A stretch of DNA of 64,000 nt, taken from the NCBI GenBank assembly GCA_903848955.1, contig CAINHS010000122.1, positions 647-64,646 of the forward strand, written 5' to 3'. The notes under the pieces were generated by a model. The model searched no databases. It was not told where the DNA came from and worked only from the letters and a program-made list of their open reading frames with translations. Positions 9,935 to 64,000 of the stretch are shown in pieces. Both the position numbers and the translations under genes were made by a program. How positions within the stretch are numbered: the first letter of the stretch is position 1; each line of letters opens with the position of its first letter. Source of the DNA: an uncultured beta proteobacterium. Its GTDB lineage: Bacteria > Pseudomonadota > Gammaproteobacteria > Burkholderiales > Rhodocyclaceae.

Positions 9935-9992
9935 AGCCTGTCTGTTTTCTTCCTTCGCCGCAATGACGAAGAAATATAGGAGAGGATAAATC

Positions 9993-10838: not shown

Positions 10839-13800
10839 TCATCCGACCGCCTGGCGGACGGCGTCGATCAGGGCCGTCAGTTCCTTGATCAGTGCGCTGC
10901 CGCAGTTATCGATGCTGTCTTTTGCCGCGCCGTCACGAACCGCCAGATGAAGCGCCTTCGCCGCCTCGGCGACCCGCATGGCACCGATCGTGCCGGCGGA
11001 ACCCTTGAGGGTGTGGGCCAGGTCCTTGAGACTGCCGAGATCATTTCCTGCCAGGGCTGCGGCGAGGCGCGGCAGGTCTTGGGCATGGCTGGCGGCGAAC
11101 ACCGCCAGCAGCTTGGCATGCTTCGCCGTATTGCCGTGCATCAGCGCCAGTCCGCGTTCGACATCCAGCCCCGGAACATATTCCAGGCGCCGCCGCCATT
11201 GTTCCGTGTCCGCTACCGGCTCCGCTGCCACCGCGGCCGCCGGCGGCGCCGTGCCGCCAGCATTTCCGGCGTTCGCCGGCAGCCACTTCAGCAGTATCGC
11301 GTAGAGCGCGTCGGGATCCACCGGCTTGGGGACGAAGTCGTTCATGCCGGCTTCCATGCAGGCGCGGCGATCGCCGTCGAAGGCGTTGGCGGTCATGGCC
11401 AGAATCGGTGTGCGGCTGCGGCCGGGCAGGGCGCGGATGACCCGCGTTGCCTGCAGCCCATCCATATCGGGCATCTGCATATCCATCAGGATCAGCGGGT
11501 AGTCGGTAGTCCGCGCACGCTCCACCGCTTGCCGTCCGTCGCTGGCGACATCCACCGCCAGACCGGCGCCTTCCAGCAGTTCCAGCGCGACTTCGCGATT
11601 GGTCGGGTTGTCTTCGACCAGCAACAAGCGGACGCCGCCATGATGCTGTCGCAGTTCGGCCTCGGCATCCACCGCCAGTTCGGCCACGGCGGGCGGCATC
11701 ATGCCGCGGCCGCGGCCGAGGCGGGCGGTGAACCAGAAGGTGCTGCCTTTGCCCGGCGTACTGTCAACGCCGACTTCGCCACCCATCAGTTCCGCCAGCC
11801 GGCGGTTGATGACAAGTCCGAGGCCGCTGCCGCCGTACTGTCGCGCCGTCGAGGCGTCGGCCTGCTCGAAGGCATGAAACAGGCCGGACATCTGTTCCGG
11901 GCTGATGCCGATGCCGGTGTCGGCGACCTCGAAGCGCACCAGGATGTCCGCGCCGTTGTCTTCGAGAAGGTGGGCGCGCAGGGAGACCGACCCCCGTTCC
12001 GTGAATTTGAGGGCATTGCTGATGTAGTTGACCAGCGCCTGCCGCAACCGCGTCGGATCGCCGCGCAACCAGAGCGGCACGCCGTCGGAATCAAAGCGGA
12101 TGGCCAGACCCTTGGCCCGGGCCTGGCCGGAGATCAGCGAACGGACATGGCCGAAGATCGCCGCCAGCGAGAAGTCGGTGTCCTCCAGGCTCAGCTTGCC
12201 GGCCTCGATCCTGGAGATGTCGAGAATGTCATTGATGATGGACAGCAGATGGTTCGCCGCAGTGTCGATCTTGCCCAACCGGCGCGCCTGCTCCGCGTTC
12301 GGTCCGGCGCGGCGCAGCAGGTGCGTGAGGCCGATGATGGCATTCATCGGGGTGCGGATTTCGTGGCTCATGTGGGCCAGAAAGGCGCTCTTCGCCAGGT
12401 TGGCGACTTCCGCCCGTTGCCGTGCATCTTCCAGTTGCGCGGTGCGGCTTGCGACCAGTTCCATCAGGCGATGATGGAACTGGTCGAGCTCGGCTTCGGC
12501 CTGCTTGCGTGCGGTGATGTCGGCATGGGTGCCGATGATGCGCAAGGGCTTGCCGTCCCCGCTGCGGCTGACCACCATGCCGCGATCGAGTATCCACATG
12601 TAGCTGCCGTCCTTGCAGCGGACACGGTGTTCGCTGGCGTAGACCGGTGTCCTGGCCTCGAGGTAGGCTTGCAGCGTGATCAGGACTGCGGCCTTGTCTT
12701 CGGGATGGATGCGGCTTTCCCATTCATCCAGGCCGTTGCCGACCTCGTCGTCGGCAAAGCCGAGCATTTCCTTCCAGCGCGGTGAGAAAAAAACCGTGCC
12801 GTCGGCCACGCTCCAGTCCCAGAGCCCGTCGCCGGTGCCTTCGATAGCGAAGCGCCAGCGATATTCGCTGTCCTTCAGCAACTGCTGGCTGCCCTCTATC
12901 TCGCGGGTCAGCCCTGCGGCGATGCGCGCTGCGTTTGCCCGCGTATTGATAACCGAGAGCACCAGGCCGGAAAGCAGCACACTGAGCGCAAGGCCGCCGA
13001 TCAGGGCCGCCCACGCCGGAGCGTGACTGATGGCCGCTGCCGCGGTCTGCTGGAATACCAGCAGCCACGAATGGCCGTTCAGCTCGAGCGTCCGCTGCTG
13101 ATGGAGCAGGTGGTTCCGCGCCGGCACCTGACCCGGACTGCTGGCGAACAGCAGCCGCGCCGGCAGCGCCTCAGGGCCGTCGTAGATGTGCAGGTCCACG
13201 GTGTTGCCGTCGCCGGCATCCCAGCCTTGCAGAATGCCGGCCATCAGATCCTGCATGCGGCAGCGGCTTGAAATCCAGCCGGTCAGCGCGGCGCGCTTCT
13301 GCGCCACGGTGTCCGTCGCCATGCCATTGCGATACACGGGAACATACATGACGGTTTCCGCCAGGAGTTCGGCCGCGCTCTCCGGCAGCCGTTCGATCTT
13401 GCCGCTCAGCGCCGCCCGCCCGCTGTCACGCGCCTGCTCCATGGCGGCGCGCCGCACCGGCTCGGAGAAGGCATCGAAACCGAAGGCGCGCAGATTGCCG
13501 CCGCTGAAGGGTTCGATATAGACGATGGAGCTGTAGCCGGCTCGCTCGCCGGCCGGATGAACGCTGTAGTCCGGAAAACCTTCGCGGCGGATCCGGGCGA
13601 CGTGGCTGGCGAGTTGATCGCGGCCGATAACCTGGTTGAACGCCAGTTCCTTTTGGGCGGGAACAGTCTCTTCCAGCCGCAGTTGGTCGACCCAGGCGCG
13701 CCACTGTTTGCGATCTGCCTTGTCCGCTGTCGAAAAAAGCGCTGCGCCGCCGCGCAGGATCAGCGCTTCGGTGCCGAGGCGTTCCCGGATCTTGAGGGTG

Positions 13801-32949: not shown

Positions 32950-34046
32950 GACGCGGCGAGCATGCGCTCCAGCGCCACCTTTGCCAGCACGGCTTCATGC
33001 TGTGGCACCTTGATCTGATTGACTACCCGACCCTCGACCAGGTTTTCCAGCGTCCACGCCAGATGCTGCGGATCGATGCGCTGCATGGTCGAGCACATGC
33101 AGATGGTGCTGGCCATGAACTGTACGGTCTTGCCTTCGTGCTTCACTTCCTCGGCCAGGCGCTGTACCAGATTGAGTTCGGTGCCCACCAGCCAGCGCGT
33201 GCCGGGTGGCGCCGCCTTGACGGTGCTGAGAATGTACTCGGTACTGCCGATATGGTCGGACTGCCGGCAGACTTCGAAACTGCATTCCGGGTGCGAAATC
33301 ACCATGCCGTCGGGATACTGGTTGCGGAAGCGGATGATGTCGGCGGGCTGGAACATCTGGTGCACCGAACAGTAGCCGTGCCAGAGGATGATCCTGGCCT
33401 TGGCGATCTGCTCGCGGCTAAGGCCGCCCAGTTCGAGGTCGGGGTTCCAGATCACCATCTCGTCCTGCGGGATGCCCATCTTGAATCCGCTCCAGCGCCC
33501 CAGATGCTGGTCGGGAAAGAACAGCACCTTCTCGCGCCGGTCAAACGACCATTGCAGGATTTTCGGCGCGTTGGAGGAGGTGCAGACGATGCCGCCGTGG
33601 TCGCCGCAGAAGGCTTTCAGATCGGCGGCTGAATTGATGTAGGTGACCGGCGTCACCTTCTCGTCGGGATCGAGCACTGCGGAAAGCTCGCGCCAGGCGC
33701 GCTCGACCTTGGCCAGGCTGGCCATGTCGGCCATCGAGCAGCCGGCCGCAAGGTCGGGGAGGATCGAAACCTGTTCCGGGCGCGACAGGATGTCCGCCAC
33801 TTCGGCCATGAAATGCACGCCGCAGAAGACGATGTTTTCGGCATTCGACTGCGAGGCCAGGCGCGACAGCTTGAGCGAATCGCCGGTGATGTCGGCATGG
33901 GCATACACATCGGCGCGCTGGTAATGGTGACACAGCAACACCACCCTGTCGCCCAGCTTTTCCCTGGCGGCGCGGATGCGCTCGCCGGCAGCCTGGTCGG
34001 GCAGTTGGTTGAAGCGGTCAAAGGAGATGCTAGCTGTTTGTGCCAT
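32946..34046 (-). CDS. nadA: Quinolinate synthase A
   Basis: HHYQR, FCGVHFMAE, AGCSMAD, CTSSNA, GYCSVH, CMCSTM. Confidence 0.93.
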   Translation of the reverse strand: MAQTASISFDRFNQLPDQAAGERIRAAREKLGDRVVLLCHHYQRADVYAHADITGDSLKLSRLASQSNAENIVFCGVHFMAEVADILSRPEQVSILPDLAAGCSMADMASLAKVERAWRELSAVLDPDEKVTPVTYINSAADLKAFCGDHGGIVCTSSNAPKILQWSFDRREKVLFFPDQHLGRWSGFKMGIPQDEMVIWNPDLELGGLSREQIAKARIILWHGYCSVHQMFQPADIIRFRNQYPDGMVISHPECSFEVCRQSDHIGSTEYILSTVKAAPPGTRWLVGTELNLVQRLAEEVKHEGKTVQFMASTICMCSTMQRIDPQHLAWTLENLVEGRVVNQIKVPQHEAVLAKVALERMLAAS

Positions 34047-34105
34047 GGGAAAGCAGGCCGGTGCGGCGGGATAGAATGAGCAGGATTCGAGTATAGCGTT
34101 CCCAA

Positions 34106-50796: not shown

Positions 50797-51021
50797 TCAG
50801 ACGGCGGGGATCGGCTTGGTGAGTCGTGCCCGGCTTTGCGCCTCGGACTTGTTCATTTCGGACACCTGGCGGCCGTAGGCCTCGCGCGCAGCCTGCCCCT
50901 GACGCGTGGCCTCGATGCTGCGGATGCAGCGCCAGCGCTTGCCGGCCTTGGTTTCGATCTGGCGCATCTCTGTTTTCGGATGATGCTGCCGGCAGTGGTA
51001 ACAGAAGGCGGTTTCGGCCAT
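50797..51021 (-). CDS. Small hypothetical protein with CxxC motif
   Basis: MAETAFCYHCRQHH...WRCIRSI; RBS-like GGAC/GAG upstream; fills the gap before the amidase gene. Confidence 0.6.
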   Translation of the reverse strand: MAETAFCYHCRQHHPKTEMRQIETKAGKRWRCIRSIEATRQGQAAREAYGRQVSEMNKSEAQSRARLTKPIPAV

Positions 51022-51146
51022 GCGGACGGACTCGGACAGTTGGATATGCCAATTGTAGACGGTCTTGCCATTATGATCCTATAGACTTGAGTCAAGCCGC
51101 CGCGACGGCGTCAATCGATTTCCAGAGCGAAGGCCATATTTTGAAC

Positions 51147-51740
51147 ATGACACCGGGCATTGCGCCCGAGGCGGAGCTGCCGCCATACGACGGCGTGGCC
51201 ATGGCCGACGTCGTGCTGGTGACGTCGCCGGAGGCCGCCGCCGCGGCCCGGCAGGTCTTGCAGGCGGAGGAGGTGCTGGGCTTCGATACGGAGTCGAAGC
51301 CGACCTTCAGCAAGGGCGAAATATCCACCGGACCGCATCTGATTCAACTGGCAACCGCGACCCGGGTTTACCTGTTTCCCGTCGGTCGCCAACCCGAACT
51401 GCCGGACGTCAAGGCTATCCTCGAGTCGCCGCGGATCTTGAAAGTGGGCTTCGGCCTTGACTCCGATCTGGCGCAATTGCGGGCGCGACTGCAGATCGAG
51501 GCGCGGAACATCCTCGATCTGTCGCGTGCGCTGCGCAGCGAAACCGGCAAACAAAGCCTCGGCGCCAAGACCGCGGTGGCGCAGTATTTCGGCCGGCGCC
51601 TGCAGAAATCCAAAAGGACCACCACCTCCAACTGGGCCAATCCGCGGCTGACGGAGCGCCAGATTTTGTACGCCGCCAACGATGCGCAAGTGGCCCTGCG
51701 GGTGTATCGCGCGGCCTTTCCGTCCGGCGCCTTGTCGTAA
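51147..51740 (+). CDS. DEDDy 3'-5' exonuclease domain protein
   Basis: LGFDTESKP, HLIQLA, KVGFGLDSD, SNW, QILYAANDA. Confidence 0.88.
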   Translation: MTPGIAPEAELPPYDGVAMADVVLVTSPEAAAAARQVLQAEEVLGFDTESKPTFSKGEISTGPHLIQLATATRVYLFPVGRQPELPDVKAILESPRILKVGFGLDSDLAQLRARLQIEARNILDLSRALRSETGKQSLGAKTAVAQYFGRRLQKSKRTTTSNWANPRLTERQILYAANDAQVALRVYRAAFPSGALS

Positions 51741-51783
51741 CCTCGCCCCGCCGCGCCGGGCATCCCGCTACGCACAGCGGGGA

Positions 51784-51835
51784 ATAAGCAATCCGCAAAT
51801 TCTTGGTTCGCTTCACGGTCGGGAAACTCTAGAGT
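51784..51835 (+). promoter_or_regulatory. Promoter of the sbp-encapsulin operon with a candidate sulfur-regulator (CysB-like) motif
   Basis: ATAAGCAATCCGCAAATTCTTGGTT (51784-51808) and -10-like TAGAGT (51830-35); the motif recurs upstream of the rhodanese gene. Confidence 0.6.
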
Positions 51836-51866
51836 TCGCCCATCCCAACCGATAGAGGCATCCATC

Positions 51867-52868
51867 ATGATTCGCTCCACCCTTCTCGCGGTGCTGCTCG
51901 GCATTGCGCTAGGCGCCCAGGCTGCCGACGTCAGCCTGCTCAACGTCTCCTACGACCCGACGCGCGAGCTCTACCAGGACTTCAACGCCGCCTTCGCCAG
52001 GCACTGGAAGGCCAGGACCGGCGACAACGTCAGCATCAAGCAGTCCCACGGCGGCTCGGGCAAGCAGGCCCGCGCCGTCATCGACGGGCTCGAGGCCGAC
52101 GTCGTCACGCTGGCGCTGGCCTACGACGTCGATGCGCTGCACGACAAGGCCAGGCTGATTCCCGCCGACTGGCAAAAGCGCCTGCCGCACAATGCCTCGC
52201 CCTACACCTCGACCATCGTCTTCCTCGTCCGCAAGGGCAATCCCAAGGGCATCAAGGACTGGAACGATCTGGTCAAGCCCGGCATCGGTGTCATCACGCC
52301 CAATCCAAAGACCTCCGGCGGTGCGCGCTGGAACTACCTGGCGGCCTGGGCCTACGCGCTGAAGCAGCCGGGCGGCAATGACGCCAGGGCCCAGGACTTC
52401 GTCGCCAAGCTGTTTGCCAATGTGCCGGTGCTCGATTCCGGCGCCCGCGGCTCGACCACCACCTTCGTCGAGCGCGGCATCGGCGATGTGTTGCTGGCCT
52501 GGGAAAACGAGGCCTATCTGGCTGTCAAGGAACTCGGGCCGGACAAGGTCGAGATCGTCACGCCCTCGCTTTCGATCCTTGCCGAACCGCCGGTCAGCGT
52601 CGTCGACAAGTTCGCCGACAAGCACGGCACGCGCAAGGTGGCCGAGGCCTACCTGCAATACCTCTATTCGGAAGAAGGCCAGGACATCGCCGGCAAGAAC
52701 TACTACCGGCCGATCGACAAGAAGGTCGCCGCGAAGTACGCCAAGACCTTCGCCAACGTCAAGCTGATCACCATCGACGAAGTCTTCGGCGGCTGGCAGA
52801 AGGCGCAGAAGACTCACTTCGAGGACGGCGGCTCCTTTGATCAGATCTACAAGCCCGCGGCTCGCTGA
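51867..52868 (+). CDS. sbp: Sulfate ABC transporter substrate-binding protein
   Basis: [39 protein letters not shown]. Confidence 0.95.
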
Positions 52869-52879
52869 TCGAACCGGTC

Positions 52880-53827
52880 ATGAACAGCCGCAATGAAGCG
52901 CTCTTTGCCGTCGAACAGGGCGCGCCGAACTGGGATATCCCTGGCATCGTCGCCGCGCTGCGCGAGTTGCGCGATGCCTCCCTCGAAGGCCGCGCCCGCC
53001 GCGGCAAGCCGCCCAAGCTGCCATCGCGCAAGGCCTTGATCGAGATCCTCGACGGCCTGCGCGCCACGCTGTTTCCCAACCGGCTCGGCTGCTCGTCGCT
53101 GAGCGACGAAGGGGTCGATTACTTTGTCGGGCATACGCTCGATGCGGCACTGCGCGAACTGCTGGAGCAGGTGCATCTGGAACTGAAATTCTCGGCCTAC
53201 CAGGACGATGTCCGCGATGCCTTCCGCGACCAGGCTATTGTCATCGCGCGGGAATTCGCCGCCGGCCTGCCGCGCCTCCGTGCCCTGCTCGAAACCGATC
53301 TGGCGGCGGCGTATAGCGGCGACCCGGCGGCGCGCGGCATAGACGAAATCCTGGTCTGCTATCCGGGCATGACCTCGATCACCTGCCACCGCTTTGCCCA
53401 CGAACTGAACCGCCTCGGCGCGCCGCTGATCGCGCGCATGATCGCCGAAATATCGCATTCGACGACCGGCATCGACATCCATCCGGGGGCGCAGATCGGG
53501 CCGAGTTTCTTCATCGACCACGGCACCGGCGTGGTGATCGGCGAAACCGCCGTGATCGGCGAGCGCGTGCGTCTGTACCAGGCGGTGACCCTTGGCGCCA
53601 AGCGTTTCGAGGCCGACGACAAAGGCGACCTGGTCAAGGGCAGTGCCCGCCATCCGGTCATCGGCAATGACGTAGTCATCTATGCCGGCGCCACGATACT
53701 CGGCCGGGTCACCATCGGGCACGGCTCGGTGATCGGCGGCAATGTCTGGCTGACCCACAGCGTGCCGCCGGGCAGCCACGTGGCCCAGACGCAATCCACC
53801 AGCCAGCCGGTTTCGACCGGCGTCTGA
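52880..53827 (+). CDS. cysE: Serine O-acetyltransferase (SrpH/EpsC type)
   Basis: GDPAA, CYPG, TGIDIHPGA, IDHGTGVVIGET, YQAVTLG, RHP, GGNVW. Confidence 0.9.
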   Translation: MNSRNEALFAVEQGAPNWDIPGIVAALRELRDASLEGRARRGKPPKLPSRKALIEILDGLRATLFPNRLGCSSLSDEGVDYFVGHTLDAALRELLEQVHLELKFSAYQDDVRDAFRDQAIVIAREFAAGLPRLRALLETDLAAAYSGDPAARGIDEILVCYPGMTSITCHRFAHELNRLGAPLIARMIAEISHSTTGIDIHPGAQIGPSFFIDHGTGVVIGETAVIGERVRLYQAVTLGAKRFEADDKGDLVKGSARHPVIGNDVVIYAGATILGRVTIGHGSVIGGNVWLTHSVPPGSHVAQTQSTSQPVSTGV

Positions 53828-53871
53828 GCGCCGGCGGCATCAACATTCAATCCACAGGAAGGGAAGTCCTC

Positions 53872-54804
53872 ATGACCACCACGGAACACAAACAATCCGC
53901 TCTCGGCGACGTCGCCGCACGGCAGCTCGCGAACGCGACCAAGACCGTCCCGCAACTCTCGATCATCACGCCGCGCTGGCTGACGCACCTGCTGCCGTGG
54001 ACGCCGGTCGAAGCCGGCATCTACCGGGTCAACCGGGTCAAGGACGCGTCCCGCGTGCTGGTTGCCTGTTCGCGGCGCGACGAGTCGGAGCTTCCCGAGA
54101 CCTTCGTCGACTACGATGAGACCCCCCGCGAGTACATGCTGTCGGTGGTCAACACGGTACTCGACGTGCATACCCGTGTTTCCGACCTCTACAGCAGCCC
54201 GCACAACCAGATCAAGGAACAGCTGCGCCTGACCATCGAAACCGTCAAGGAACGGCAGGAATCCGAGCTGATCAACAACAAGGAATACGGCCTGCTGGCG
54301 AATGCCCATCCGGACCAGGTCATCCGGCCGCTGGGTGGCGTGCCGACGCCGGACGATCTTGACGAGCTGCTGGCCCTGGTGTGGAAAGAGCCGGGCTTCT
54401 TCCTCGCCCATCCCCGGGCCATTGCCGCCTTCGGCCGCGAATGCACCCGTCGCGGCGTGCCGCCGCCGACCGTGACCCTGTTCGGTTCCCAGTTCATCAC
54501 CTGGCGCGGCGTACCGCTGATTCCCTCGGACAAGGTGCCGGTGGACAAGCAGGGCAGGACCAAGATCCTGCTGTTGCGCACCGGTGAAGCGCGCCAGGGC
54601 GTGATCGGCCTGTTCCAGCCCGGCCTGCCCGGCGAGCAGGGGCTCGGCCTCTCGGTGCGCTTCATGGGCATCAACCGCAAGGCCATCGCCAACTACCTCA
54701 TTTCGCTGTACTGCTCCCTGGCCGTGCTCAGCGAGGACGCCCTGGCGGTGCTCGATGGCGTTGAGACCGGCAAGTACCATGACTACAAGCCTGAATACCG
54801 CTGA
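53872..54804 (+). CDS. Family 2A encapsulin shell protein (SrpI-like)
   Basis: AARQLANATKTVPQ, ITPRWLTHLLPW, GIYRVNRV, PREYMLS, PTPDDLDELL, WRGVPLIPSDK; 310 aa with no cNMP insertion; directly upstream of a cysteine desulfurase. Confidence 0.92.
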   Translation: MTTTEHKQSALGDVAARQLANATKTVPQLSIITPRWLTHLLPWTPVEAGIYRVNRVKDASRVLVACSRRDESELPETFVDYDETPREYMLSVVNTVLDVHTRVSDLYSSPHNQIKEQLRLTIETVKERQESELINNKEYGLLANAHPDQVIRPLGGVPTPDDLDELLALVWKEPGFFLAHPRAIAAFGRECTRRGVPPPTVTLFGSQFITWRGVPLIPSDKVPVDKQGRTKILLLRTGEARQGVIGLFQPGLPGEQGLGLSVRFMGINRKAIANYLISLYCSLAVLSEDALAVLDGVETGKYHDYKPEYR

Positions 54805-56401
54805 TCCGGAAGCGGCCGGCGCGCCCGTATCCGAAGCGGTGCTGACGCAACTGGCGAATGAACTGTTCGCCGCGCTCCCGGCTCAAGCCTCGGCCCGGCC
54901 GCCGGTTCCTGCCATGGCGGCCGCAACGGGTGCTCCCGCGCCTGGCGCCGACCTGACCTACTTCGGCTTGCCCGGCGAAGCCGAACTGCAGGCCTTGCTC
55001 GCGCCGATCATCGTCTCGCCGCGCGCACCGTCGGCTGCGGCCGACCCGGCCGGTGGTTTCTACTTCCTGTCCGAGGCGCTGGCGCGCAATCCGGCTCCGC
55101 ATCAAGCCGAGACATTGCCCGACGATGCCTTCCGCCCGCAGCTGGTCGATGACATCCGGCCAGCGCATCCCGGCTTCGACGTCAATGCGATCCGCAAGGA
55201 CTTCCCCATCCTCAAGGCAACCGTCCACGGCAAGCCGCTGATCTGGTTCGACAACGCGGCGACGACGCAAAAGCCGCAGGCGGTGATCGATCGCCTGGCC
55301 TACTTCTACGAGCACGAGAACTCCAACATCCACCGCGCCGCACATGATCTGGCGGCACGCGCCACCGACGCCTACGAGGCCGCGCGGGAAAAGGTGCGCG
55401 GCTTCCTCAACGCCGGCTCGACCAAGGAGATCGTCTTCGTCCGCGGCGCCACCGAGGCCATCAACCTGGTGGCACAGAGCTGGGGGCGGCAGAACATCGA
55501 GGCCGGCGACGAGATCATCGTCACCCATCTCGAACATCACGCCAACATCGTGCCCTGGCAGCAGCTTTGCGTCGAGAAGGGCGCCGTGCTGCGCGTGGCT
55601 CCGGTGGATGACAGCGGCCAGATCCGGCTCGACCTGTACGAACGGTTGTTCTCGTCGAAGACCCGCCTGGTGGCGCTGACGCAGGTTTCGAATGCGCTCG
55701 GCACCGTCACGCCGGCGCAGCAGATGGTGGCCATCGCCCATCGCCACGGCGCGCGCGTGCTGGTCGACGGCGCGCAATCGGTGTCGCACATGGCCACCGA
55801 CGTGCAGCAGCTCGACTGCGACTGGTTCGTCTTCTCCGGCCACAAGGTATTCGGCCCTACCGGCATCGGCGCGCTCTACGGCAAGGAAGACCTGCTCAAC
55901 GCGACGCAGCCCTGGCAAGGCGGCGGCAACATGATCGCCGACGTCACCTTCGAGAAGACGGTGTTCCAGCCGGCGCCGGGACGCTTCGAAGCCGGCACCG
56001 GCAACATTGCCGATGCCGTCGGCCTCGGCGCCGCCATCGATTACGTGCAGCGCATCGGCATGGACAACATCGCCGGCTACGAGCACGACTTGCTGGCCTA
56101 TGCGACCAAGGCGCTGCTGACCGTCCCCGGCCTGCGGCTGATCGGCACGGCGGCGGAAAAGGCCAGCGTGCTGTCCTTCGTGCTCGACGGCTACAGCACG
56201 GAGGAAGTCGGCAAGGCGCTCAACGAGGAAGGCATTGCGGTGCGCTCGGGACACCACTGCGCGCAGCCCATCCTGCGCCGCTTCGGCCTCGAGGCCTCGG
56301 TGCGGCCTTCGCTGGCGTTCTACAACACCTGTGCCGAGGTCGACACGATGATCGCGGTATTGCGCGACCTGAAAGGCGGGCGGACGACACTGCCGGTGTG
56401 A
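54779..56401 (+). CDS. Encapsulin-cargo cysteine desulfurase (class II SufS-like) with long N-terminal cargo-loading extension
   Basis: About 135-aa Pro/Ala-rich N-terminus containing LTQLANELF, then DFPIL, DNAATTQKP, SGHK (PLP Lys) and RSGHHCA (catalytic Cys). Overlaps the shell gene by 26 nt. Confidence 0.92.
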   Translation: MTTSLNTADPEAAGAPVSEAVLTQLANELFAALPAQASARPPVPAMAAATGAPAPGADLTYFGLPGEAELQALLAPIIVSPRAPSAAADPAGGFYFLSEALARNPAPHQAETLPDDAFRPQLVDDIRPAHPGFDVNAIRKDFPILKATVHGKPLIWFDNAATTQKPQAVIDRLAYFYEHENSNIHRAAHDLAARATDAYEAAREKVRGFLNAGSTKEIVFVRGATEAINLVAQSWGRQNIEAGDEIIVTHLEHHANIVPWQQLCVEKGAVLRVAPVDDSGQIRLDLYERLFSSKTRLVALTQVSNALGTVTPAQQMVAIAHRHGARVLVDGAQSVSHMATDVQQLDCDWFVFSGHKVFGPTGIGALYGKEDLLNATQPWQGGGNMIADVTFEKTVFQPAPGRFEAGTGNIADAVGLGAAIDYVQRIGMDNIAGYEHDLLAYATKALLTVPGLRLIGTAAEKASVLSFVLDGYSTEEVGKALNEEGIAVRSGHHCAQPILRRFGLEASVRPSLAFYNTCAEVDTMIAVLRDLKGGRTTLPV

Positions 56402-56405
56402 TCAT

Positions 56406-56453
56406 CCGGCGGACGGCTGCCCGCAGCAGGGAAGCCGTCCGCCGGCGTTTTTT
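56406..56453 (+). terminator. Rho-independent terminator of the encapsulin operon
   Basis: CCGGCGGACGGCT / AGCCGTCCGCCGG 13-bp stem followed by TTTTTT; abuts the convergent rhodanese stop. Confidence 0.8.
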
Positions 56454-56920
56454 CAGCGCTGGTCCCAGGGCAGCGGGTAGGACTTCCAGCCGTTGACGCA
56501 GCGCCGGCCGGCTTCATTCAGCACGCCCTCGAAACCTTCCAGTACGTTGAAGACATTCTCGAATCCGGCCGAGGTCAGTTTTGTCGCGGCCTCGTCGGAG
56601 CGGATGCCGGAACGGCAGAGCAGGATCAGCACCGTTTCGGGTGCGTACTTGCGCTGGATGGCGGTGACGAAGGAAGGGTTCAAGTCCCAGTCGGGAAAGA
56701 ACTTCCATTCGATGTTGACAGCCTGCGGAATCCGCCCGATCAGCTTGAGTTCGGCTTCGCTGCGGATGTCGATCAGCACGGCGCCGGGCACGCTCTGCCA
56801 GGCGGCGCAGGCTTCGGGCGGCGTCAGCGTGCCGCGATAGGCGAGGTTCAGCTCGCGGGCGCGGCGTTGGGCGAGTTCGAGCGGGTGGGCGGTGGCCAAT
56901 TCGACGACGACGGCGTTCAT
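56453..56920 (-). CDS. Single-domain rhodanese (sulfurtransferase)
   Basis: LIDIRSEAE, active-site loop CRSGIRS, FNVLEGFEG. Confidence 0.9.
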   Translation of the reverse strand: MNAVVVELATAHPLELAQRRARELNLAYRGTLTPPEACAAWQSVPGAVLIDIRSEAELKLIGRIPQAVNIEWKFFPDWDLNPSFVTAIQRKYAPETVLILLCRSGIRSDEAATKLTSAGFENVFNVLEGFEGVLNEAGRRCVNGWKSYPLPWDQR

Positions 56921-56953
56921 GGGATTTCCTCTGATCAGATTGCACGTTGGCTA

Positions 56954-57005
56954 ACTGTATGACCATCGTCTCCGGTTCCAAACCAAGAAATTCAGATTTG
57001 CATAT
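56954..57005 (-). promoter_or_regulatory. Rhodanese promoter sharing the sbp motif
   Basis: Minus strand ATATGCAAATCTGAATTTCTTGGTT (19/25 identical to the sbp motif), with -10-like TACAGT at the same spacing. Confidence 0.6.
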
Positions 57006-57104
57006 CAGGAATCGGTGGTTGGTGGGCGCGGACGGAAAAGCAGGGATGACTCTGCTACTCTTGAGCCGCGAGTTCCTCTTCAACCTGTTCTGCAAGGAGC
57101 CACC

Positions 57105-57659
57105 ATGATCCGTCCCAGTCTCTTTCTTGCCGCCGGGCTTGCCTTGGCCGGCAGTGCCTGCGCTGAGCCTTTCACGCTTTCCAGTGCCGATATCAAGCCG
57201 AATCTCCCCATCGCCGACGAACAACTGTATGAAGGCTTCGGCTGCACCGGCAAGAATGTCTCTCCCGCCGTCAAATGGTCCGGCGCGCCGAAGGGCACGA
57301 AGAGCTTTGCGCTGCTTGTGCATGACCCCGATGCGCCTACCGGCGGCGCCGGCTGGTGGCACTGGGTGGTGACCAACATTCCCGCCGATGCCGGGGAACT
57401 GCCCAAGGGTGCCGGCAAGGCTGACGGTTCCGGCCTGCCCCGGGGCGCCGCGCAAATCACCACGGATTTCGGTGCTCCCGGCTGGGGCGGCCCATGCCCG
57501 CCGGTTGGCGACAAGCCGCATCGCTACAACTTCACGCTGCACGCCCTGAAAGTGGAAAGGCTGGAACTGCCGCAGGGGGCGACTGCCTCGCTCGCCGGGT
57601 TCATGATCAATGCCAACTCCATCGGCAAGGCGACGCTGACCGGAAAATACGGGCGCTAG
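57105..57659 (+). CDS. YbhB/YbcL family (PEBP-like) periplasmic protein
   Basis: RBS AAGGAG; signal peptide; GKNVSP, HDPDAPTG..WWHW, GPCPPVGDKPHRY. Confidence 0.9.
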   Translation: MIRPSLFLAAGLALAGSACAEPFTLSSADIKPNLPIADEQLYEGFGCTGKNVSPAVKWSGAPKGTKSFALLVHDPDAPTGGAGWWHWVVTNIPADAGELPKGAGKADGSGLPRGAAQITTDFGAPGWGGPCPPVGDKPHRYNFTLHALKVERLELPQGATASLAGFMINANSIGKATLTGKYGR

Positions 57660-57690
57660 TCGCGGCAGACGCGCGCAAACACCATCCCGG

Positions 57691-58854
57691 CTATCGCGCT
57701 CCCCAGTATGGCGTTGCGATCCCGTCGCCGAGGTCGGCCTCGACCAGGCGGCGGCGTACCTCGAGCAGTTGTGCGATCAGTGCCGGCTCGGTGCGAGCGT
57801 AGGCCTCGGCAGCGGGGCTGCGATTGACCACCACGCCGAGCACCTCGGTGATCGCGTTGCCGATCGAGTTCTGGCTGATGGTGACGATGAGCTTGCCGGC
57901 GTCGTTGCGATAGATCAGCTGCTTGAAGGCCGGCTGCCAGCGGATCGCGTTGGCGTACTTGGCATCGGTGATGCACCGGTCGCGCACCATCTTCGCCGTC
58001 TTCAGGAAATCGTTGTTGAATTGCAGCTTGTTGGCCACCAGCGCGGGGAAGCAGATGTCATGCGGCAGCGGCGCGTTGCGGGTTGATACCTGGCTGAAGA
58101 AGGTGCGGTAGAAATCGATGAAGCCCATGAGGATGGTGTCGTACTCATTCCAGAAGCGAACTTCCCCGAGCGCTGCCGCGCCCCCCGCGATTTCCCAGCT
58201 CGGCAGCCCCTGCGGGTAGCCGGTCAGGGCAATGCGGCATGACCCCGCCTCGCATGGCCGCAGGATCTGCAGGTCAAGCTCTTCAAAGAAGGCGCGGTAG
58301 GCGTCGCGCATATGGGCCTGGAACAGCGAATGCTGGCCGCCGTCCGTCAGGTTCGGGTTGTTAGCGTCGGCGATCGGCGCAGCGCGCAGTTCTGCCTTGT
58401 TGAAGGCGATGAAGTGATTGTGCAGCATGCGGATGCTCGGCACGCCGGGCGAAGTCAGCGGCCAGGTGGCGTCGAGACTCGCTTCGCCGGCGAGCAGCAG
58501 GGTTTGCTCGGGGTCGGGGTAGCGCTCCAGCATGTAGCCGACGATGATCTGGTTCATGCGATTCCAGACGTTCTTCACCGGCTGCGGCAGTTGGGTTCGC
58601 CGCACCGGGCGACCGAGAGGATCGAGAATGCTCTGCGAGGTGTTGTAGATGATCGAGGCGTCGAACTCGTTGCTGTGACCGAGCGCCTTGCGGTAAAGCA
58701 CCAGCCCCTCCGGGTTCTGCAGCAGGCCGTTGTTGTGAACCAGATCCTTGAGGTTCTCGGCGCTGTTGAAGAATTCGTTCGGCTTCATTCCTTCCGGCAC
58801 ATCGAGCGGTATCGGGCGAAAAGCCGTGACGATTTCTCTCGGGCCGGACTGCAT
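57691..58854 (-). CDS. Hypothetical protein (possible HIT-like fold)
   Basis: 387-aa ORF with genome-like codon usage; SIRMLHNHF motif; start uncertain. Confidence 0.75.
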   Translation of the reverse strand: MQSGPREIVTAFRPIPLDVPEGMKPNEFFNSAENLKDLVHNNGLLQNPEGLVLYRKALGHSNEFDASIIYNTSQSILDPLGRPVRRTQLPQPVKNVWNRMNQIIVGYMLERYPDPEQTLLLAGEASLDATWPLTSPGVPSIRMLHNHFIAFNKAELRAAPIADANNPNLTDGGQHSLFQAHMRDAYRAFFEELDLQILRPCEAGSCRIALTGYPQGLPSWEIAGGAAALGEVRFWNEYDTILMGFIDFYRTFFSQVSTRNAPLPHDICFPALVANKLQFNNDFLKTAKMVRDRCITDAKYANAIRWQPAFKQLIYRNDAGKLIVTISQNSIGNAITEVLGVVVNRSPAAEAYARTEPALIAQLLEVRRRLVEADLGDGIATPYWGAR

Positions 58855-59149
58855 GGATTTACTCCCGCGCGCTAGGATGAAGTTGCTGCGGGTGGTACCG
58901 GCGCCGCCTGCGGCCATGCCGTTCCTCCCTGCCGTTTCGTGTCGCGGAAAGCATAGACGGGCACTTGCCGTCTGGCAAATCAGGATTGATTACGGGCGCA
59001 TCAGTTCCATGCGATGCGCCATTGCCGGGATGCCCTGGCCCGCCACCGGCAAGGACCGTCAAATCCGGTCGAAGTCACGCTGCTGAAATGAGATTCCGCT
59101 GCGTCGGGCGCATCGGCTATTCTGGCAGCCTGAACGGAGCAGCCTGTTG

Positions 59150-59776
59150 ATGAGCCAGGAAATCAGATGGAGCAAGCGCTACAGCGATGCGGGTGACGAG
59201 TATTTGTTCGGCACCGAGCCGAACCGCTTTCTCGCGCATCGGGCCGATCTGTTGCAAAACGGCCGGACTGCCCTGTCGGTCGCCGATGGCGAGGGCAGGA
59301 ATTCGGTCTGGCTGGCCGAACAGGGACTGGACGTCACCGCCATGGAGATTTCGCCGGTTGCAATCGAGAAGGCAAGACGGCTGGCGGCGGGGCGCAAGGT
59401 CGATGTCCGTTTCATCCTGAACGACATGCTGGCGCCGGATTGGCCGCCGGCGCAACTGCAAAACGCCTTTGACTGGGTGATAGGCATCTTCATCCAGTTT
59501 GTCGGTCCCATGGAACGGAATCGGCAATTTGCCGCGATGAAGCAAGTTACCGCTCCGGGCGGGTGCATCCTGTTGCAAGGCTACACGCCGAAGCAACTCG
59601 ATTACCGCACCGGCGGGCCTTCCGACCTTGAAAACCTCTACACGCGGGAGATGCTGCAGGCAGCTTTTGCCGACTGGGAGATCGAGGAACTCGTGGACTA
59701 CGATGACGAAATTTCGGAAGGGGCAGGACACAAGGGGCGCTCGGCACTGATCGGGCTGGTTGCCCGCAAGCCCTGA
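59150..59776 (+). CDS. Class I SAM-dependent methyltransferase
   Basis: YLFGTEPN, LSVADGEGRNSVWLA, GYTPKQL..TGGP. Confidence 0.88.
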   Translation: MSQEIRWSKRYSDAGDEYLFGTEPNRFLAHRADLLQNGRTALSVADGEGRNSVWLAEQGLDVTAMEISPVAIEKARRLAAGRKVDVRFILNDMLAPDWPPAQLQNAFDWVIGIFIQFVGPMERNRQFAAMKQVTAPGGCILLQGYTPKQLDYRTGGPSDLENLYTREMLQAAFADWEIEELVDYDDEISEGAGHKGRSALIGLVARKP

Positions 59777-59803
59777 GCCAGCCGTTCCCGCGTTCGATCT
59801 CAA

Positions 59804-60505
59804 ATGAATTCATCACTCATCTCCGCCTCAGCACTCCCGGCCTACACGGCGGTGCTGTTTGATTTCGAGGGCACGCTGGTCGATTTCCAGTGGCAACTCG
59901 GGCCGGCCGAAGACGAACTGCGCCAGGCCTGCGCCCGGCTCGGCTTGCAAGGCAAAGAGTTTTCCAGCGGCAATTACGCCGCCATGTGGAACGCTGCCGT
60001 CGACCTGTTTGCTCCGCAAGGGCGCCAGGCTGAACTGCGCCAGGCGCTCGGTCCCGTTTATGACCGGTGGGACCTCGACGCACTCGCCAGATGGGCGCCG
60101 CGACCGGGCGCAGCGGAGTTGCTCGGCCAATTGCATGCCGGCGGCCGGCCCGCCGGCATGGTCAGCAACATCGGGCGCGGTGCGCTGGTCGCCGCTCTGC
60201 GGCGTTTCGGTTTCGCTGAATGCCTGTCGCCGGTAGTGACTCGCGACGATGTGAGCTACATGAAGCCAAGGGCGGAAGGCATCTTGCGGGTGATTGCGGA
60301 TTGGCAGACCACGGCGGACCAGGTGCTTTTCGTCGGCGACAGTCATGCCGACGTTTACGCGGCGCGTGCCGCCGGCGTGGCGGTGGCGATAATCAGAGGG
60401 GGTGAGTGTGCCGAAACGACATTCGCCGACAATCCGCCGGACCACATGATTTCCCAGTTAAGCGAACTGGCCGGCCTGATCGCCGGGCGCGGCGATCAAA
60501 CCTGA
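59804..60505 (+). CDS. HAD-superfamily hydrolase (motif I atypical, DFEGT)
   Basis: VLFDFEGTLVD, VSN, KPRAEG, FVGDSHADV. Confidence 0.8.
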   Translation: MNSSLISASALPAYTAVLFDFEGTLVDFQWQLGPAEDELRQACARLGLQGKEFSSGNYAAMWNAAVDLFAPQGRQAELRQALGPVYDRWDLDALARWAPRPGAAELLGQLHAGGRPAGMVSNIGRGALVAALRRFGFAECLSPVVTRDDVSYMKPRAEGILRVIADWQTTADQVLFVGDSHADVYAARAAGVAVAIIRGGECAETTFADNPPDHMISQLSELAGLIAGRGDQT

Positions 60506-60555
60506 TTGTCTGCAGTTGCCGGGTCCGGCAAGACGTGCCAGATGCGCAAGGCATG

Positions 60556-61080
60556 TCAGGCCTCGCTGCGCGGCGGACCCTCGCCGGCAAGGCCATCCGG
60601 AACGCCGCAATTGTTTGCCAGCCCGATTGCATTGGCCTCCATTACGGCGGTCACGATGACGGCTATCAGGGTAGGGACCAGGGCGACGCGCGTGAGGGCG
60701 AGCCACAGGATGTGCTGCATGCTGGCTTCATGCGCTGCCTGGCTGATCAGCCAGGCGACGAAAATCAGCAGCGCAGAGACCGCATATCCCAGCATCAGCC
60801 ATCTTGAATTATTGAATGTCAGGCGCCAATGCGCGTCGACAAACCAGCTGGTGGTTTTCCGACTGCGCCGGAAGATGTAGCCGATCAGCAGGCTGGAACA
60901 GAGCAAAGGGATCAGCAAACCCGACATTCCCGCATTCAGGACGACAATGGCGGGGGTCATGAACAAGTCCAGCACGAACAACCCGGATATGAACAGGTTG
61001 TGCGGCACTTGTGCCCGGCGGATTTCTTCCCTGGTGACCTCGCAGCGCATCCCGTTCTCCGCAGTAGTCAAATTCGCCAT
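60556..61080 (-). CDS. Hypothetical integral membrane protein
   Basis: Four to five hydrophobic segments after EEIRRAQVPHNLF; start uncertain (61080 or 61050). Confidence 0.65.
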   Translation of the reverse strand: MANLTTAENGMRCEVTREEIRRAQVPHNLFISGLFVLDLFMTPAIVVLNAGMSGLLIPLLCSSLLIGYIFRRSRKTTSWFVDAHWRLTFNNSRWLMLGYAVSALLIFVAWLISQAAHEASMQHILWLALTRVALVPTLIAVIVTAVMEANAIGLANNCGVPDGLAGEGPPRSEA

Positions 61081-61190
61081 CGCCGAACCCTCGGCGGGAC
61101 AAGCCGGCAACGCGGCCGCCGCCGGCTTCGAAGATGAGAAATGTCCGTTGTCGGGGCATTGGCGGAGCCCCGCCCGCTGTCGCCGGCCGG

Positions 61191-61622
61191 CTAGTGACCG
61201 ACGCGGATGTGCTCGCGACGATTGGCTTCCGAGACGAATTCTTCCAGCTCGGGATCCATCGCATTGCGCGACGAAACCATCCCGATCGGCTTGCCATGGT
61301 CGACGACCGGTGCATGGCGGAAGCCGTGTTCCTGCATCATCACCAGCGCGTAGCCGTAGGATGTGGCGGAATCGACCGTCCGTGGATTCCTGGTCATCAC
61401 ATCGACCAATTTCGTCGTACGCGGATCGAGGCCGCGCGCGATAACGCGAAACAAGGCGTCGCGTTCGGTAAAAATCCCGATCAGGCACTCGTGCTCGACG
61501 ACCATGGCAGCCCCGACTTTCTGCCTGTCCATCAATTCCGCAGCCTTGCTGACGGTGGTATCCGGAGCCAGGACAAGGGCGTCCTTCTTCTCCATGACAT
61601 CTCTTACAAGTAGATCAAACAC
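61191..61622 (-). CDS. Tandem CBS-domain protein
   Basis: GTG start after GGAAGGAA RBS; VRDVM, LIGIFTERD, DVMTRNP, GFRHAPVVD, GMVSSR. Confidence 0.85.
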   Translation of the reverse strand: MFDLLVRDVMEKKDALVLAPDTTVSKAAELMDRQKVGAAMVVEHECLIGIFTERDALFRVIARGLDPRTTKLVDVMTRNPRTVDSATSYGYALVMMQEHGFRHAPVVDHGKPIGMVSSRNAMDPELEEFVSEANRREHIRVGH

Positions 61623-61683
61623 GGCATTTCCTTCCCCGGGGTTCAAAGTGCGCCTGATCGTTCCCTGCAGCACTGACTCGAGG

Positions 61684-61724
61684 ATGGTAGGGGCTTTAGG
61701 CTTGATGACATTGATCATAATCAA
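61684..61724 (-). promoter_or_regulatory. FNR-type class II promoter of the CBS gene
   Basis: Perfect TTGAT-CATA-ATCAA (61711-61724) and minus-strand -10-like TACCAT (61689-61684). Confidence 0.75.
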
Positions 61725-61883
61725 ATATGCGCTGCGCGGAGGGCGGGAACCAGCCGCATCCGGCGCTTGCCCATGGCAACGACCTGATCCCGGACTGACG
61801 ACTAGCGCATCAGGCCGGCCTGGCGTTATGCTTGCGCCCCTGCATCTGCATCCATACACCGCGACATCCAAAGGAGAAAGCTC

Positions 61884-63008
61884 TTGTCCGCTCTGCTGCC
61901 CCAACCCGATCCCCAAGGCCTGCTCGAATATTCGGTGGTCTATACCGACCGCGCCCTCAACCACATGTCGCAACGCTTCCAGGGCGTGATGAAGGACATT
62001 TCGCGCATCCTGAAGAGCGTGTACCACGCCAGGTCCGCCGTTGTCGTGCCGGGTAGCGGCAGCTTCGGCATGGAAGCCGTGGCGCGCCAGTTCGCCACCG
62101 GCAAGAAGTGCCTGGTCATACGCAACGGCTGGTTCAGCTTCCGCTGGACGCAGATCTTCGACATGGGCGGCATTCCCGCCGAGAGCATCGTCCTCAAGGC
62201 GCGTCGCACCGGCAGCGGCAGCCAGGCGCCGTTTGCCCCGGCGCCGCTGCAGGAAGTCCTCGCCGCGATCCGCGAGCACAGGCCGGACGTCGTCTTCGCG
62301 CCGCATGTTGAAACCGCTTCCGGCATGATCCTGCCCGATGACTACCTGCGCGCCGTCGGTGCCGCAGTGCGTGAGGTCGATGGCCTGTTCGTGCTCGATT
62401 GCGTCGCCTCGGGCACCGTCTGGGTCGATATGGTCGCCAATGATGTCGATGTCCTCATCAGCGCGCCGCAAAAGGGCTGGAGCGCCTCGCCCTGCTGCGC
62501 CCTGGTGGCGCTCGGCGAGCGCGCCCGCGCCAGGATCGACGCCACCACCAGCACCAGCTTTGCCTGCGACCTGAAGAAGTGGCTGCAGATCATGGAAGCT
62601 TTCGAGAACGGCGGCCATGCCTACCATGCCACCATGCCCACCGACGCTCTCGCCGGCCTGCGCGACGTGATGCTGGAAACCGAGGCCTACGGTTTCGACA
62701 AGGTCTGCCGCGAACAGCAGGAACTGGGCCGACGGGTGCGCGAACTGCTGGTGAGCCGGGGGTTCCCCAGTGTTGCCGCGGCAGGCTTCGAGGCTCCCGG
62801 CGTGGTGGTCAGCTACACCACCGATGCGGAGATCCAGTCAGGCAGGAAGTTCCTCAGCGCCGGGCTGCAGACCGCTGCCGGCGTCCCGCTGCAGTGCGAC
62901 GAGCCCGCCGATTTCCGCAGCTTCCGCATCGGCCTGTTCGGCCTGGACAAGTTGCACCAGCCGCAGCGGACCGTAAAGAGCCTGGAAGTCGCCTTGAGCA
63001 AGATTTGA
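61884..63008 (+). CDS. Class V PLP aminotransferase (serine-pyruvate/alanine-glyoxylate type)
   Basis: RBS AAGGAG with TTG start; PGSGSFGMEAV, HVETASG, DCVASG, SAPQKGW. Confidence 0.85.
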   Translation: MSALLPQPDPQGLLEYSVVYTDRALNHMSQRFQGVMKDISRILKSVYHARSAVVVPGSGSFGMEAVARQFATGKKCLVIRNGWFSFRWTQIFDMGGIPAESIVLKARRTGSGSQAPFAPAPLQEVLAAIREHRPDVVFAPHVETASGMILPDDYLRAVGAAVREVDGLFVLDCVASGTVWVDMVANDVDVLISAPQKGWSASPCCALVALGERARARIDATTSTSFACDLKKWLQIMEAFENGGHAYHATMPTDALAGLRDVMLETEAYGFDKVCREQQELGRRVRELLVSRGFPSVAAAGFEAPGVVVSYTTDAEIQSGRKFLSAGLQTAAGVPLQCDEPADFRSFRIGLFGLDKLHQPQRTVKSLEVALSKI

Positions 63009-63037
63009 ACTGTCGGGCCGGCGCCTGAGCGCCGGCC

Positions 63038-64000
63038 TCAGCAGCGGGTCAGGCGGCTGCCCCAGAATGCCGCCAGTTCCAGCATGCGGTTGGCAAAGCC
63101 CCATTCGTTGTCGAACCAGATCAGCAGGTTTGCCAGCTGTGGACCGCTCATGCGCGTCTGGCTGGCGTCGATGATGGCGGAATATGCGCTGTGGTTGAAG
63201 TCGACCGAGGCATGGGCTTCCGCGGTATAGGCCAATTGTCCCGGGAAACTCGCGGCCACCGCCTGCTGCAGGCAGGCGTTGATCCCGGCAACGGTGGTGG
63301 GGCGTGCCAGCGTCGCTACCAGGTCGATGGCCGAGACATTGGTCACCGGCACGCGGATCGACTTGGCTTCGACGCGGTCGGCCAGTTGCGGCAGCAGGCG
63401 CGCCACGCCGCGGGCGAGGCCGGTGGCGACCGGGATGATGGACTGCATCGCCGAGCGTGTGCGGCGCAGGTCGGCATGGTGGTAGCCGTCGATCGGCGGC
63501 TGGTCGTTCATCACCGAGTGCAGTGTCGTCATCAGGGCGTGATCGATGCCGAAGGCCGCGTCGAGAATCGTCAGCACCGGCACGATCGCGTTGGTGGTGC
63601 AGGACGCGGCCGACACGATGCGTTCGTCGCCAACGAGCGATTCGTGGTTGCTGCCGAAGACGATGGTGCGGTCGACATCGCCGGCGCCATGCCCCGGGTG
63701 CGACAGCAGCAGTCGCGGACATCCGGCGTCGAGGAAGGCCTGCAGTTCTGCGCGGGTCGTATAGCGGCCGGAGGCTTCGATCAGCAGGTCGATCTGCAGC
63801 GCCCGCCAATCCACGCCCTGCGGCGTCACGGCATGAGTCACCCGGACGACCTGGCCGTCGATGAGCATCTCTTCGCCGCGAACCTCGACCGTGCCCGGAA
63901 AGCGGCCGTGGGTCGAATCGAAGCGCGTCAGGTAGGCCATGCTCTCGATGTCCGCCGGCTCGTTGATGGCTACTACCGAGACCTTCCCGCGCAGCGGGGA
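63038..64000 (-). CDS. epd: Erythrose-4-phosphate dehydrogenase (GAPDH family), 5' end outside the window
   Basis: SAASCTTN, HSVMNDQ..DGYHHADLRRTRSAMQSIIP, WFDNEWGFANRM (Epd-type signatures). The frame is open to base 64000. Confidence 0.8.
   Translation of the reverse strand, partial: SPLRGKVSVVAINEPADIESMAYLTRFDSTHGRFPGTVEVRGEEMLIDGQVVRVTHAVTPQGVDWRALQIDLLIEASGRYTTRAELQAFLDAGCPRLLLSHPGHGAGDVDRTIVFGSNHESLVGDERIVSAASCTTNAIVPVLTILDAAFGIDHALMTTLHSVMNDQPPIDGYHHADLRRTRSAMQSIIPVATGLARGVARLLPQLADRVEAKSIRVPVTNVSAIDLVATLARPTTVAGINACLQQAVAASFPGQLAYTAEAHASVDFNHSAYSAIIDASQTRMSGPQLANLLIWFDNEWGFANRMLELAAFWGSRLTRC

Follow-up and report, generated by a model that had tools for sequence, protein, structure and literature searches.

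A family 2A encapsulin module behind a native sulfate-binding protein gene in an uncultured Rhodocyclaceae bacterium

How might an encapsulin operon come under the control of its host's sulfur regulon? The question is raised by a 64,000-nt stretch of DNA from an uncultured beta proteobacterium (Burkholderiales; Rhodocyclaceae; assembly GCA_903848955.1, contig CAINHS010000122.1, positions 647–64,646, forward strand), here called the window. In it sbp, the gene of a periplasmic sulfate-binding protein, is followed on the same strand by genes for an encapsulin-type serine O-acetyltransferase (AT), a family 2A encapsulin shell (Enc) and its cargo cysteine desulfurase (CD), and then by a terminator and the convergent gene of a rhodanese (R). 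This order had been proposed in an initial annotation made from the letters alone, and the open reading frames (ORFs) lie at exactly the coordinates it gave (Table 1). How desulfurase encapsulins are regulated, and what their rhodaneses do, are still debated questions (PMC10836720, Discussion). The interpretation favoured here, at a probability of roughly 70%, is that a family 2A module stands behind a native sbp and is read from the sbp promoter, with the rhodanese co-induced.

The sbp gene and the block behind it

The history of the site can be read from relatives in the genus. The 3'-5' exonuclease gene to the left of sbp is universal in the genus; in two relatives it adjoins the GAPDH-like gene found at 63038–63940 in the window, and in three sister species it is directly followed by decayed sbp remnants, two with internal deletions and one reduced to the last 27 nt. 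Nucleotide homology to the relatives (blastn) runs through the sbp stop codon, ends at 52869 and restarts at 63044. Since the site in relatives is either vacant or occupied by what is left of sbp, this gene is its ancestral occupant and the DNA behind it derived; on this comparison of sequences, sbp is native at the locus and 52870–63043 is a lineage-specific block, bounded on one side by the stop codon of sbp and on the other by the 3' end of the GAPDH-like gene, which is convergent. The same comparison shows the block, carrying AT-Enc-CD and the rhodanese gene, to be placed right after the stop codon of an sbp that is normally monocistronic, an event that removed this gene's own terminator. 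The block encodes AT, Enc, CD, the rhodanese, a PEBP, a 408-aa protein, a methyltransferase, a HAD hydrolase, a 124-aa ORF and an aminotransferase, and is mosaic: homology to the PEBP locus of relatives starts at 57030, and homologues of the aminotransferase gene (61884–63008) adjoin the exonuclease gene in other species. For the segment 52880–57029, comprising AT, Enc, CD, the terminator and the rhodanese gene with its promoter, no homologue was found in the genus by blastn, so that this segment is probably the acquired unit. No integrase or transposase was named in gene-family scans of the block proteins, and no direct repeats were seen in the junction sequences inspected, although no dedicated repeat search was made.

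The gap of 11 nt that the initial annotation gave between sbp and the AT gene (there called cysE) was recovered on measurement, as was the terminator it placed after CD. The latter is a hairpin with a 13-bp stem followed by six T residues; over the 66 nt that include it the folding energy is -40.5 kcal/mol (z = -5.25), a stability equalled by none of 200 shuffled sequences, and a simple terminator scanner had missed it because of its long loop. It is common to the end of the CD operon and the 3' end of the convergent rhodanese gene. Neither a terminator scan nor folding found a terminator between sbp and 56407. The suggestion that sbp heads the operon is thus in agreement with a gap that leaves no room for a promoter or terminator, with the sole conserved promoter-like region lying upstream of sbp, and with the junction itself, found in six assemblies. 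From the sbp promoter to the hairpin, sbp-AT-Enc-CD would be read as one transcript.

The genome is a 3.6 Mb draft in 151 contigs, and a metagenomic mis-assembly that joined sbp to an unrelated contig would produce just such an adjacency. However, the same gene order recurs on six contigs of 61–135 kb from different samples and assemblers, which share 99.85–99.98% DNA identity over 5.35 kb and are identical in the 35-nt sbp–AT junction, in both copies of the box described below and in the terminator; no repeat was seen in the junction sequence. In the assembly collection, 130 blocks contain an AT protein identical to this one. Agreement to the letter between six independent assemblies shows that the junction did not arise in assembly, and this explanation, whose probability is close to nil, is effectively refuted.

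The sbp product is clearly of the Sbp type (551 bits with NF008022, compared with 375 bits for the CysP model), and a Sec signal peptide ending AQA/AD can be read directly in its sequence. It was correctly described as an orphan lacking cysUWA: the only cysT and cysW of the genome lie on another contig, C144, in an operon of the order sbp paralogue-cysT-cysW-cysA-CysB-family gene, whose sbp paralogue is 58% identical to the sbp of the window. The orphan state loses its claim to be a distinguishing feature, for the orthologues of sister species are monocistronic too. Specifically, sbp orthologues (86–89% identity) in four to five species of the genus stand alone and are followed by hairpins or convergent genes. 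The sbp gene of E. coli is likewise monocistronic. As is generally known for E. coli, an orphan sbp lies distant from the operon of a cysP-type gene, cysT, cysW and cysA, and a CysB-family activator is present, all of which holds here as well; the difference is that in the window sbp has gained three downstream genes. As a separate observation, an Sbp/CysP homologue (E ≤ 1e-40) is present in only 8 of the 41 genomes of the genus, this one counted, and it appears that most of the genus lacks the Sbp-dependent sulfate ABC system or uses another transporter.

How often sbp heads family 2A operons, a check proposed in the initial annotation, was surveyed in 91 other family 2A loci. Of these, 80 are the species-representative loci whose shells are nearest to this one, and 8 came from 400 further Pseudomonadota genomes, sampled evenly. 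The order R-AT-Enc-CD dominates among the 80, of which 12 have sbp within 8 kb. The gene lies directly upstream of AT in two of them, both from Hyphomicrobiales, with spacers of 150–280 nt that each carry their own box, and directly downstream of CD in three, the two measured gaps being about 230 nt and holding their own copy of the box. A third sbp-AT-Enc-CD locus (G442) came from the 400-genome sample, with a spacer of about 175 nt containing hairpins. Across the 91 loci, then, sbp immediately precedes AT in 3 and immediately follows CD in 3, with spacers of 150–278 nt in the five of these six that were measured (L064 being outside the measured set), and the 11-nt fusion is unique in comparison with all of them. 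The long spacers of the other three sbp-AT-Enc-CD loci, bearing boxes or hairpins, indicate that co-transcription is not a general feature. A full-text literature search for 'encapsulin' together with 'sulfate-binding protein' found no paper. The published neighbourhood table nevertheless already lists, near family 2A shells, permeases (38%) and ATPases (30%) of ABC transporters, LysR regulators (27%) and CysK-type pyridoxal phosphate (PLP) enzymes (22%), so that the novelty is smaller than was suggested: that family 2A shells repeatedly occur beside genes for sulfur uptake and cysteine is, in broad terms, known.

A box shared by sbp, cysK and the rhodanese gene

About 100 nt upstream of sbp are conserved among the orthologues of the genus, the DNA farther upstream having diverged, and within this region a 34-nt box is kept upstream of sbp orthologues in five to six relatives. 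A position weight matrix (PWM) derived from five orthologous 34-nt cores was run over both strands of the whole genome (~7.2 million positions). First rank fell to the sbp box of this genome, itself part of the training set; the second match, at 38 bits, lies upstream of a small ORF followed by cysK, and the third, at 24 bits, upstream of the convergent rhodanese gene. Apart from the sbp copy, the genome carries the box at these two places only. A -10-like element follows the box after 15 nt at both sbp (TAGAGT) and the rhodanese gene (TACAGT), the cysK box is followed by TAGAGT at the same spacing within a base, and the start codons of sbp and the rhodanese gene lie 52 and 54 nt beyond their boxes. 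An alignment of the sbp and rhodanese leaders spans about 85 nt and scores 32, a value that 1 of 500 shuffled sequences and 17 of 3000 random stretches of the genome attained. Between the box and cysK there is a small conserved ORF or leader with the motif RRLLNRAEF (C144, ~700–1020, minus strand; also at L098, 9119–9448, and L099, 5053–5370).

In other genomes the box was found upstream of ssuA, tauA, cysK and a gene for a sigma-54 activator, of sbp genes neighbouring family 2A operons, and of the rhodanese gene that heads several R-AT-Enc-CD operons. Its position ahead of cysK here, and of ssuA, tauA, cysK and rhodanese-led encapsulin operons elsewhere, makes it a likely CysB-family operator. 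A CysB-family regulator is indeed encoded on contig C144 (443 bits), and judged from the sequence the box is most likely the operator of this activator, a candidate site that would be on under sulfur limitation. The C144 activator would accordingly switch the box-bearing genes on when sulfur is scarce. An Rfam scan of 50800–63200 returned two chance matches to miRNA models far below their gathering scores, and no riboswitch or leader RNA.

Several results weigh against a transcript led by sbp with a co-induced rhodanese. The rhodanese box scores only 24 bits as compared with 38 for that of cysK, the promoter-to-promoter alignment taken alone reaches only about p = 0.005, and PWM scores in AT-rich genomes are inflated by the GC-rich background that was used. 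A consensus sigma-70 scan of 51000–57800 found no promoter, so that the promoter assignment rests on conservation and the TAGAGT element. No Shine-Dalgarno sequence can be recognised ahead of AT, the spacer in each of the other three sbp-AT-Enc-CD loci is at least about 150 nt long (with its own box in two of them and hairpins in the third), and in a phylogenetic tree the rhodanese falls outside the clade of 56 operon rhodaneses. Some of these points lend themselves to another explanation, in which sbp and the module became neighbours by chance, through insertion into a variable hotspot, and AT-Enc-CD is expressed mainly from a promoter in the 3' end of sbp or only by weak read-through, with no selected functional coupling between sbp and the encapsulin. 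Such an accident would suit the interval between the exonuclease and GAPDH-like genes, which is highly variable in the genus (empty, or with remnants or other cargo), as well as the unrelated genes in the block (PEBP, methyltransferase, HAD hydrolase), the missing Shine-Dalgarno sequence of AT and the long spacers elsewhere. However, promoter and PWM scans detected no box or promoter-like element inside sbp, and sbp recurs beside family 2A operons in unrelated lineages. Moreover, sbp is intact at this site only in the species that has the module and decayed in three sister species that lack it, which fits selection on the fused unit. An accidental adjacency is therefore unlikely, and the unusual wiring of the operon is probably best explained, as far as sequence can tell, by promoter capture behind the native sbp.

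Table 1. Features of the sbp–encapsulin locus, in window coordinates. NF, NCBIfam curated model; cut-offs are the curated values.
Feature	Position	Strand	Evidence
34-nt box GGAATAAGCAATCCGCAAATTCTTGGTTCGCTTC, candidate CysB-type, upstream of sbp	51781–51814	+	conservation; best genome-wide PWM match
-10-like TAGAGT, 15 nt past sbp box	51830–51835	+	
sbp, periplasmic sulfate-binding protein (333 aa)	51867–52868	+	NF008022, 551 bits (cut-off 288)
sbp–AT spacer, 11 nt, TCGAACCGGTC	52869–52879	+	no promoter, terminator or clear Shine-Dalgarno
Lineage-specific block, 10.2 kb	52870–63043		blastn homology to relatives ends 52869, restarts 63044
AT, encapsulin-type serine O-acetyltransferase (315 aa)	52880–53827	+	EpsC-type SAT model, 156 bits (cut-off 150)
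Family 2A encapsulin shell (310 aa)	53872–54804	+	NF041162, 530 bits (cut-off 380); Pfam SrpI-like PF19307, 4.9e-107
CD, cargo cysteine desulfurase (540 aa)	54779–56401; alternative ATG 54755	+	NF041166, 892 bits (cut-off 800)
Intrinsic terminator: hairpin 56407–56444, GCG, T6 at 56448–56453	56407–56453	+	-40.5 kcal/mol, z = -5.25
Single-domain rhodanese (155 aa), convergent	56453–56920	-	PF00581, 1e-12
TACAGT, 15 nt past rhodanese box	56954–56959	-	
Second box copy CTGATATGCAAATCTGAATTTCTTGGTTTGGAAC, upstream of rhodanese gene	56975–57008	-	third-best genome-wide PWM match

The convergent rhodanese

The antisense placement of the rhodanese gene, outside the operon, had been singled out in the initial annotation. 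As to position this stands, the gene being convergent and downstream, but it is probably not uncoupled, since it has the box of sbp and cysK; the same box at the same spacing from a -10 element means that the rhodanese is probably co-regulated although outside the operon. It would be transcribed convergently from its own box-bearing promoter and induced together with the operon, and its likely role would be that of a persulfide acceptor or a mobiliser of stored sulfur.

The protein has the active-site loop CRSGIRS (Cys codon at 56615–56617) and belongs to a single family of about 150 aa, in which the operon rhodaneses, the housekeeping copies and the rhodanese of the window all share an N-terminal helix and a CRSGxRS loop. 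It is 36–45% identical to operon rhodaneses and 49% identical to the housekeeping copy of the genus. In relatives (L125, L126, L127) this 150-aa housekeeping rhodanese is encoded directly upstream of nadA, as the first gene of a pair, and in the present genome the deletion of this copy is exact, running from its ATG to that of nadA, at ~34040 (34030–34050). As a consequence of the deletion, the box-bearing rhodanese is the sole full-length member of its subfamily found in the assembly. The nadA gene now sits directly on the ribosome-binding site and promoter of the deleted gene.

These circumstances permit a different account of the gene, by which the convergent rhodanese is a housekeeping sulfurtransferase that replaced the deleted pre-nadA copy, its position by the module being incidental. 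The deletion itself would be in keeping with this, as would the strand, opposite to that of the operon, and the maximum-likelihood tree, which groups the protein with the housekeeping copy of the genus and a rhodanese of Azovibrio restrictus (support 98/84) and not within the operon clade. However, the protein forms a long branch, which leaves its placement unsure, and its closest relative, that of Azovibrio, is also encoded downstream of an encapsulin operon, 2 kb beyond a cysK-AT-Enc-CD cluster. The gene is moreover contiguous with AT-Enc-CD in the stretch 52880–57029 that has no homologue in the genus, and it bears a box, whereas none was found upstream of housekeeping rhodaneses in segments of 1.0–1.1 kb around six copies of ~48% and three of ~41% identity, nor upstream of the gene in two larger loci with a ~41% copy. 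A housekeeping origin is on balance doubtful, though it keeps more credit than an accidental insertion of the module, and co-induction with the operon from a matching promoter is the preferred reading.

Two further origins were considered and set aside. The rhodanese is not the vertical orthologue of the PEBP-adjacent copy of relatives, to which it shows 40% identity and which lies on the opposite strand, homology to the PEBP locus beginning only at 57030; and its derivation from a canonical operon rhodanese moved downstream is unsupported by the tree, though the long branch weakens that placement. The Azovibrio restrictus cluster (L065, 6047–13209), whose cysK and AT genes share 4 nt, parallels the cyanobacterial order srpG-srpH-srpI; the module of S. 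elongatus is carried on a plasmid, with a cysK-like gene and an AT gene (srpG and srpH) ahead of it.

A more ambitious proposal can be attached to these findings, namely that the acquired module is a self-contained 'capture and bank' unit within the CysB regulon, whose own rhodanese displaced the housekeeping rhodanese. The idea is improbable as it stands. If true, the encapsulin-linked rhodanese would in this species be the general exit from stored sulfur into persulfide trafficking, for instance towards Fe-S cluster or cofactor synthesis, and nature would have supplied genetic evidence that encapsulin-associated rhodaneses remobilise sulfur, a role so far hypothetical.

Kinship with known systems and meaning of the locus

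Every in-silico test of membership was passed by the family 2A shell, the desulfurase cargo and the encapsulin-type AT on which the initial annotation had built, all five family assignments of the locus lying above curated cut-offs. The shell aligns end to end with SrpI (6X8M, 1.5e-158) and with the A. baumannii shell (8T6R, 4.7e-157). The cNMP-binding insertion domain that sets family 2B apart is absent from it: the 2B model covers only model positions 211–449, and the 2B shells in the PDB (470–477 aa) match it only from query residue 51–60 onward. CD, called at 540 aa by other gene-calling pipelines too, has an N-terminal domain of about 135 aa rich in alanine (24%) and proline (14%), followed by a SufS-type domain. 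Its motifs LTQLANELFA (54842–54871) and GGFYFLSE (55052–55075) correspond to the published LARLANEFFS and AASPYYFLDG, and its catalytic motifs are present, with the PLP-binding lysine in SGHK (residues 353–356) and the catalytic cysteine in GHHCA (residues 491–495). Compared along its whole length, AT shares 53–67% identity with its counterparts in other family 2A loci, whereas it resembles the housekeeping cysE product of the genome at only 42% identity and over the hexapeptide part (residues 131–299); its N-terminal region of 130 aa is distinctive. By sequence, the locus is a bona fide but ordinary family 2A cysteine-desulfurase encapsulin module.

The third-position GC of all five genes (0.83–0.89) is usual for the genome. 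The shell gene is preceded by a 44-nt spacer with a strong Shine-Dalgarno sequence (GGAAGGGAAG), and CD, from the start at 54779, has its first 26 nt within the shell gene. Weak translation signals for AT and CD next to the strong signal of the shell would fit an excess of shell over cargo, a speculative thought.

AT and rhodanese are known accessory genes of desulfurase encapsulins (PMC10836720), and four operon types, R-AT-Enc-CD, AT-Enc-CD, R-Enc-CD and Enc-CD, have been described among 1,462 desulfurase encapsulins (PMC10836720, Fig. 1C). The core of the present locus is AT-Enc-CD, with AT directly upstream of Enc-CD on the same strand, and the system is therefore already known. None of the four types, however, has an 11-nt fusion to sbp at its head or a convergent, box-bearing rhodanese at its tail, and where the published types include a rhodanese it is encoded inside the operon, upstream of AT or Enc, not convergently downstream. 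The R-AT-Enc-CD operon of A. baumannii 118362 (Benisch et al. 2024, PMC10836720) has AT, shell and CD genes of the same families, arranged alike, a CD with a disordered N-terminal loading domain and a nearby rhodanese of the ~150-aa family. It differs in that the rhodanese gene comes first in the operon, a place taken here by sbp while the rhodanese gene lies downstream, convergent and under its own promoter, and in that the N-terminal domain of CD measures ~225 aa there and in other studied systems as against ~135 aa here. The A. baumannii system rises about 10-fold under sulfur limitation (PMC10836720), and by analogy the same induction would be expected here. SrpI of S. elongatus PCC 7942 (6X8M; Nichols et al. 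2021, PMC8049743), the best PDB match of the shell, shares a desulfurase cargo with motifs resembling LARLANEFFS and AASPYYFLDG, and its module has genes of cysteine biosynthesis on its flanks and is turned on by sulfate starvation (PMC8049743); that system is cyanobacterial, and no sbp fusion is reported for it.

Within the genus the family 2A shell is rare, being present in one other species among those sampled. That locus (L094 in G024, 8818–12264) has the order Enc-CD-AT, 71% shell identity and no nearby rhodanese, which points to an independent acquisition. The interval between the exonuclease and GAPDH-like genes (51741–63043 in the window; L102, L105, L106, L108 and L109) is a variable hotspot of the genus that, depending on the species, is empty or holds differently deleted sbp remnants, an aminotransferase gene or ~6.7 kb of other DNA. 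Among the other genes of the block, the 408-aa ORF (57691–58917, minus strand) has good codon bias and no Pfam or NCBIfam match, and genes for a TPMT/TehB-like methyltransferase and a HAD hydrolase form a tight pair (59147–60505), the methyltransferase being called at 208 or 174 aa in different assemblies.

By analogy with A. baumannii and S. elongatus, the shell would package dimers of the SufS-type CD through the disordered N-terminal domain, and the loaded shell would convert cysteine to alanine and store the sulfur in elemental or polysulfide form. The additional AT would raise O-acetylserine, at once the precursor of cysteine and the source of the CysB inducer N-acetylserine, although this step is speculative.

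The compartment itself is already characterised, and the locus does not change what is known of encapsulins. Its value is that it shows cleanly, in nature, how a nanocompartment operon acquired by horizontal transfer can be connected to the regulon of its host: to judge from the sequence, the operon was inserted right at the stop codon of a gene for sulfur starvation, while its accessory rhodanese keeps a matching candidate operator. The box thereby offers a concrete candidate regulator site for the desulfurase encapsulins of Betaproteobacteria.

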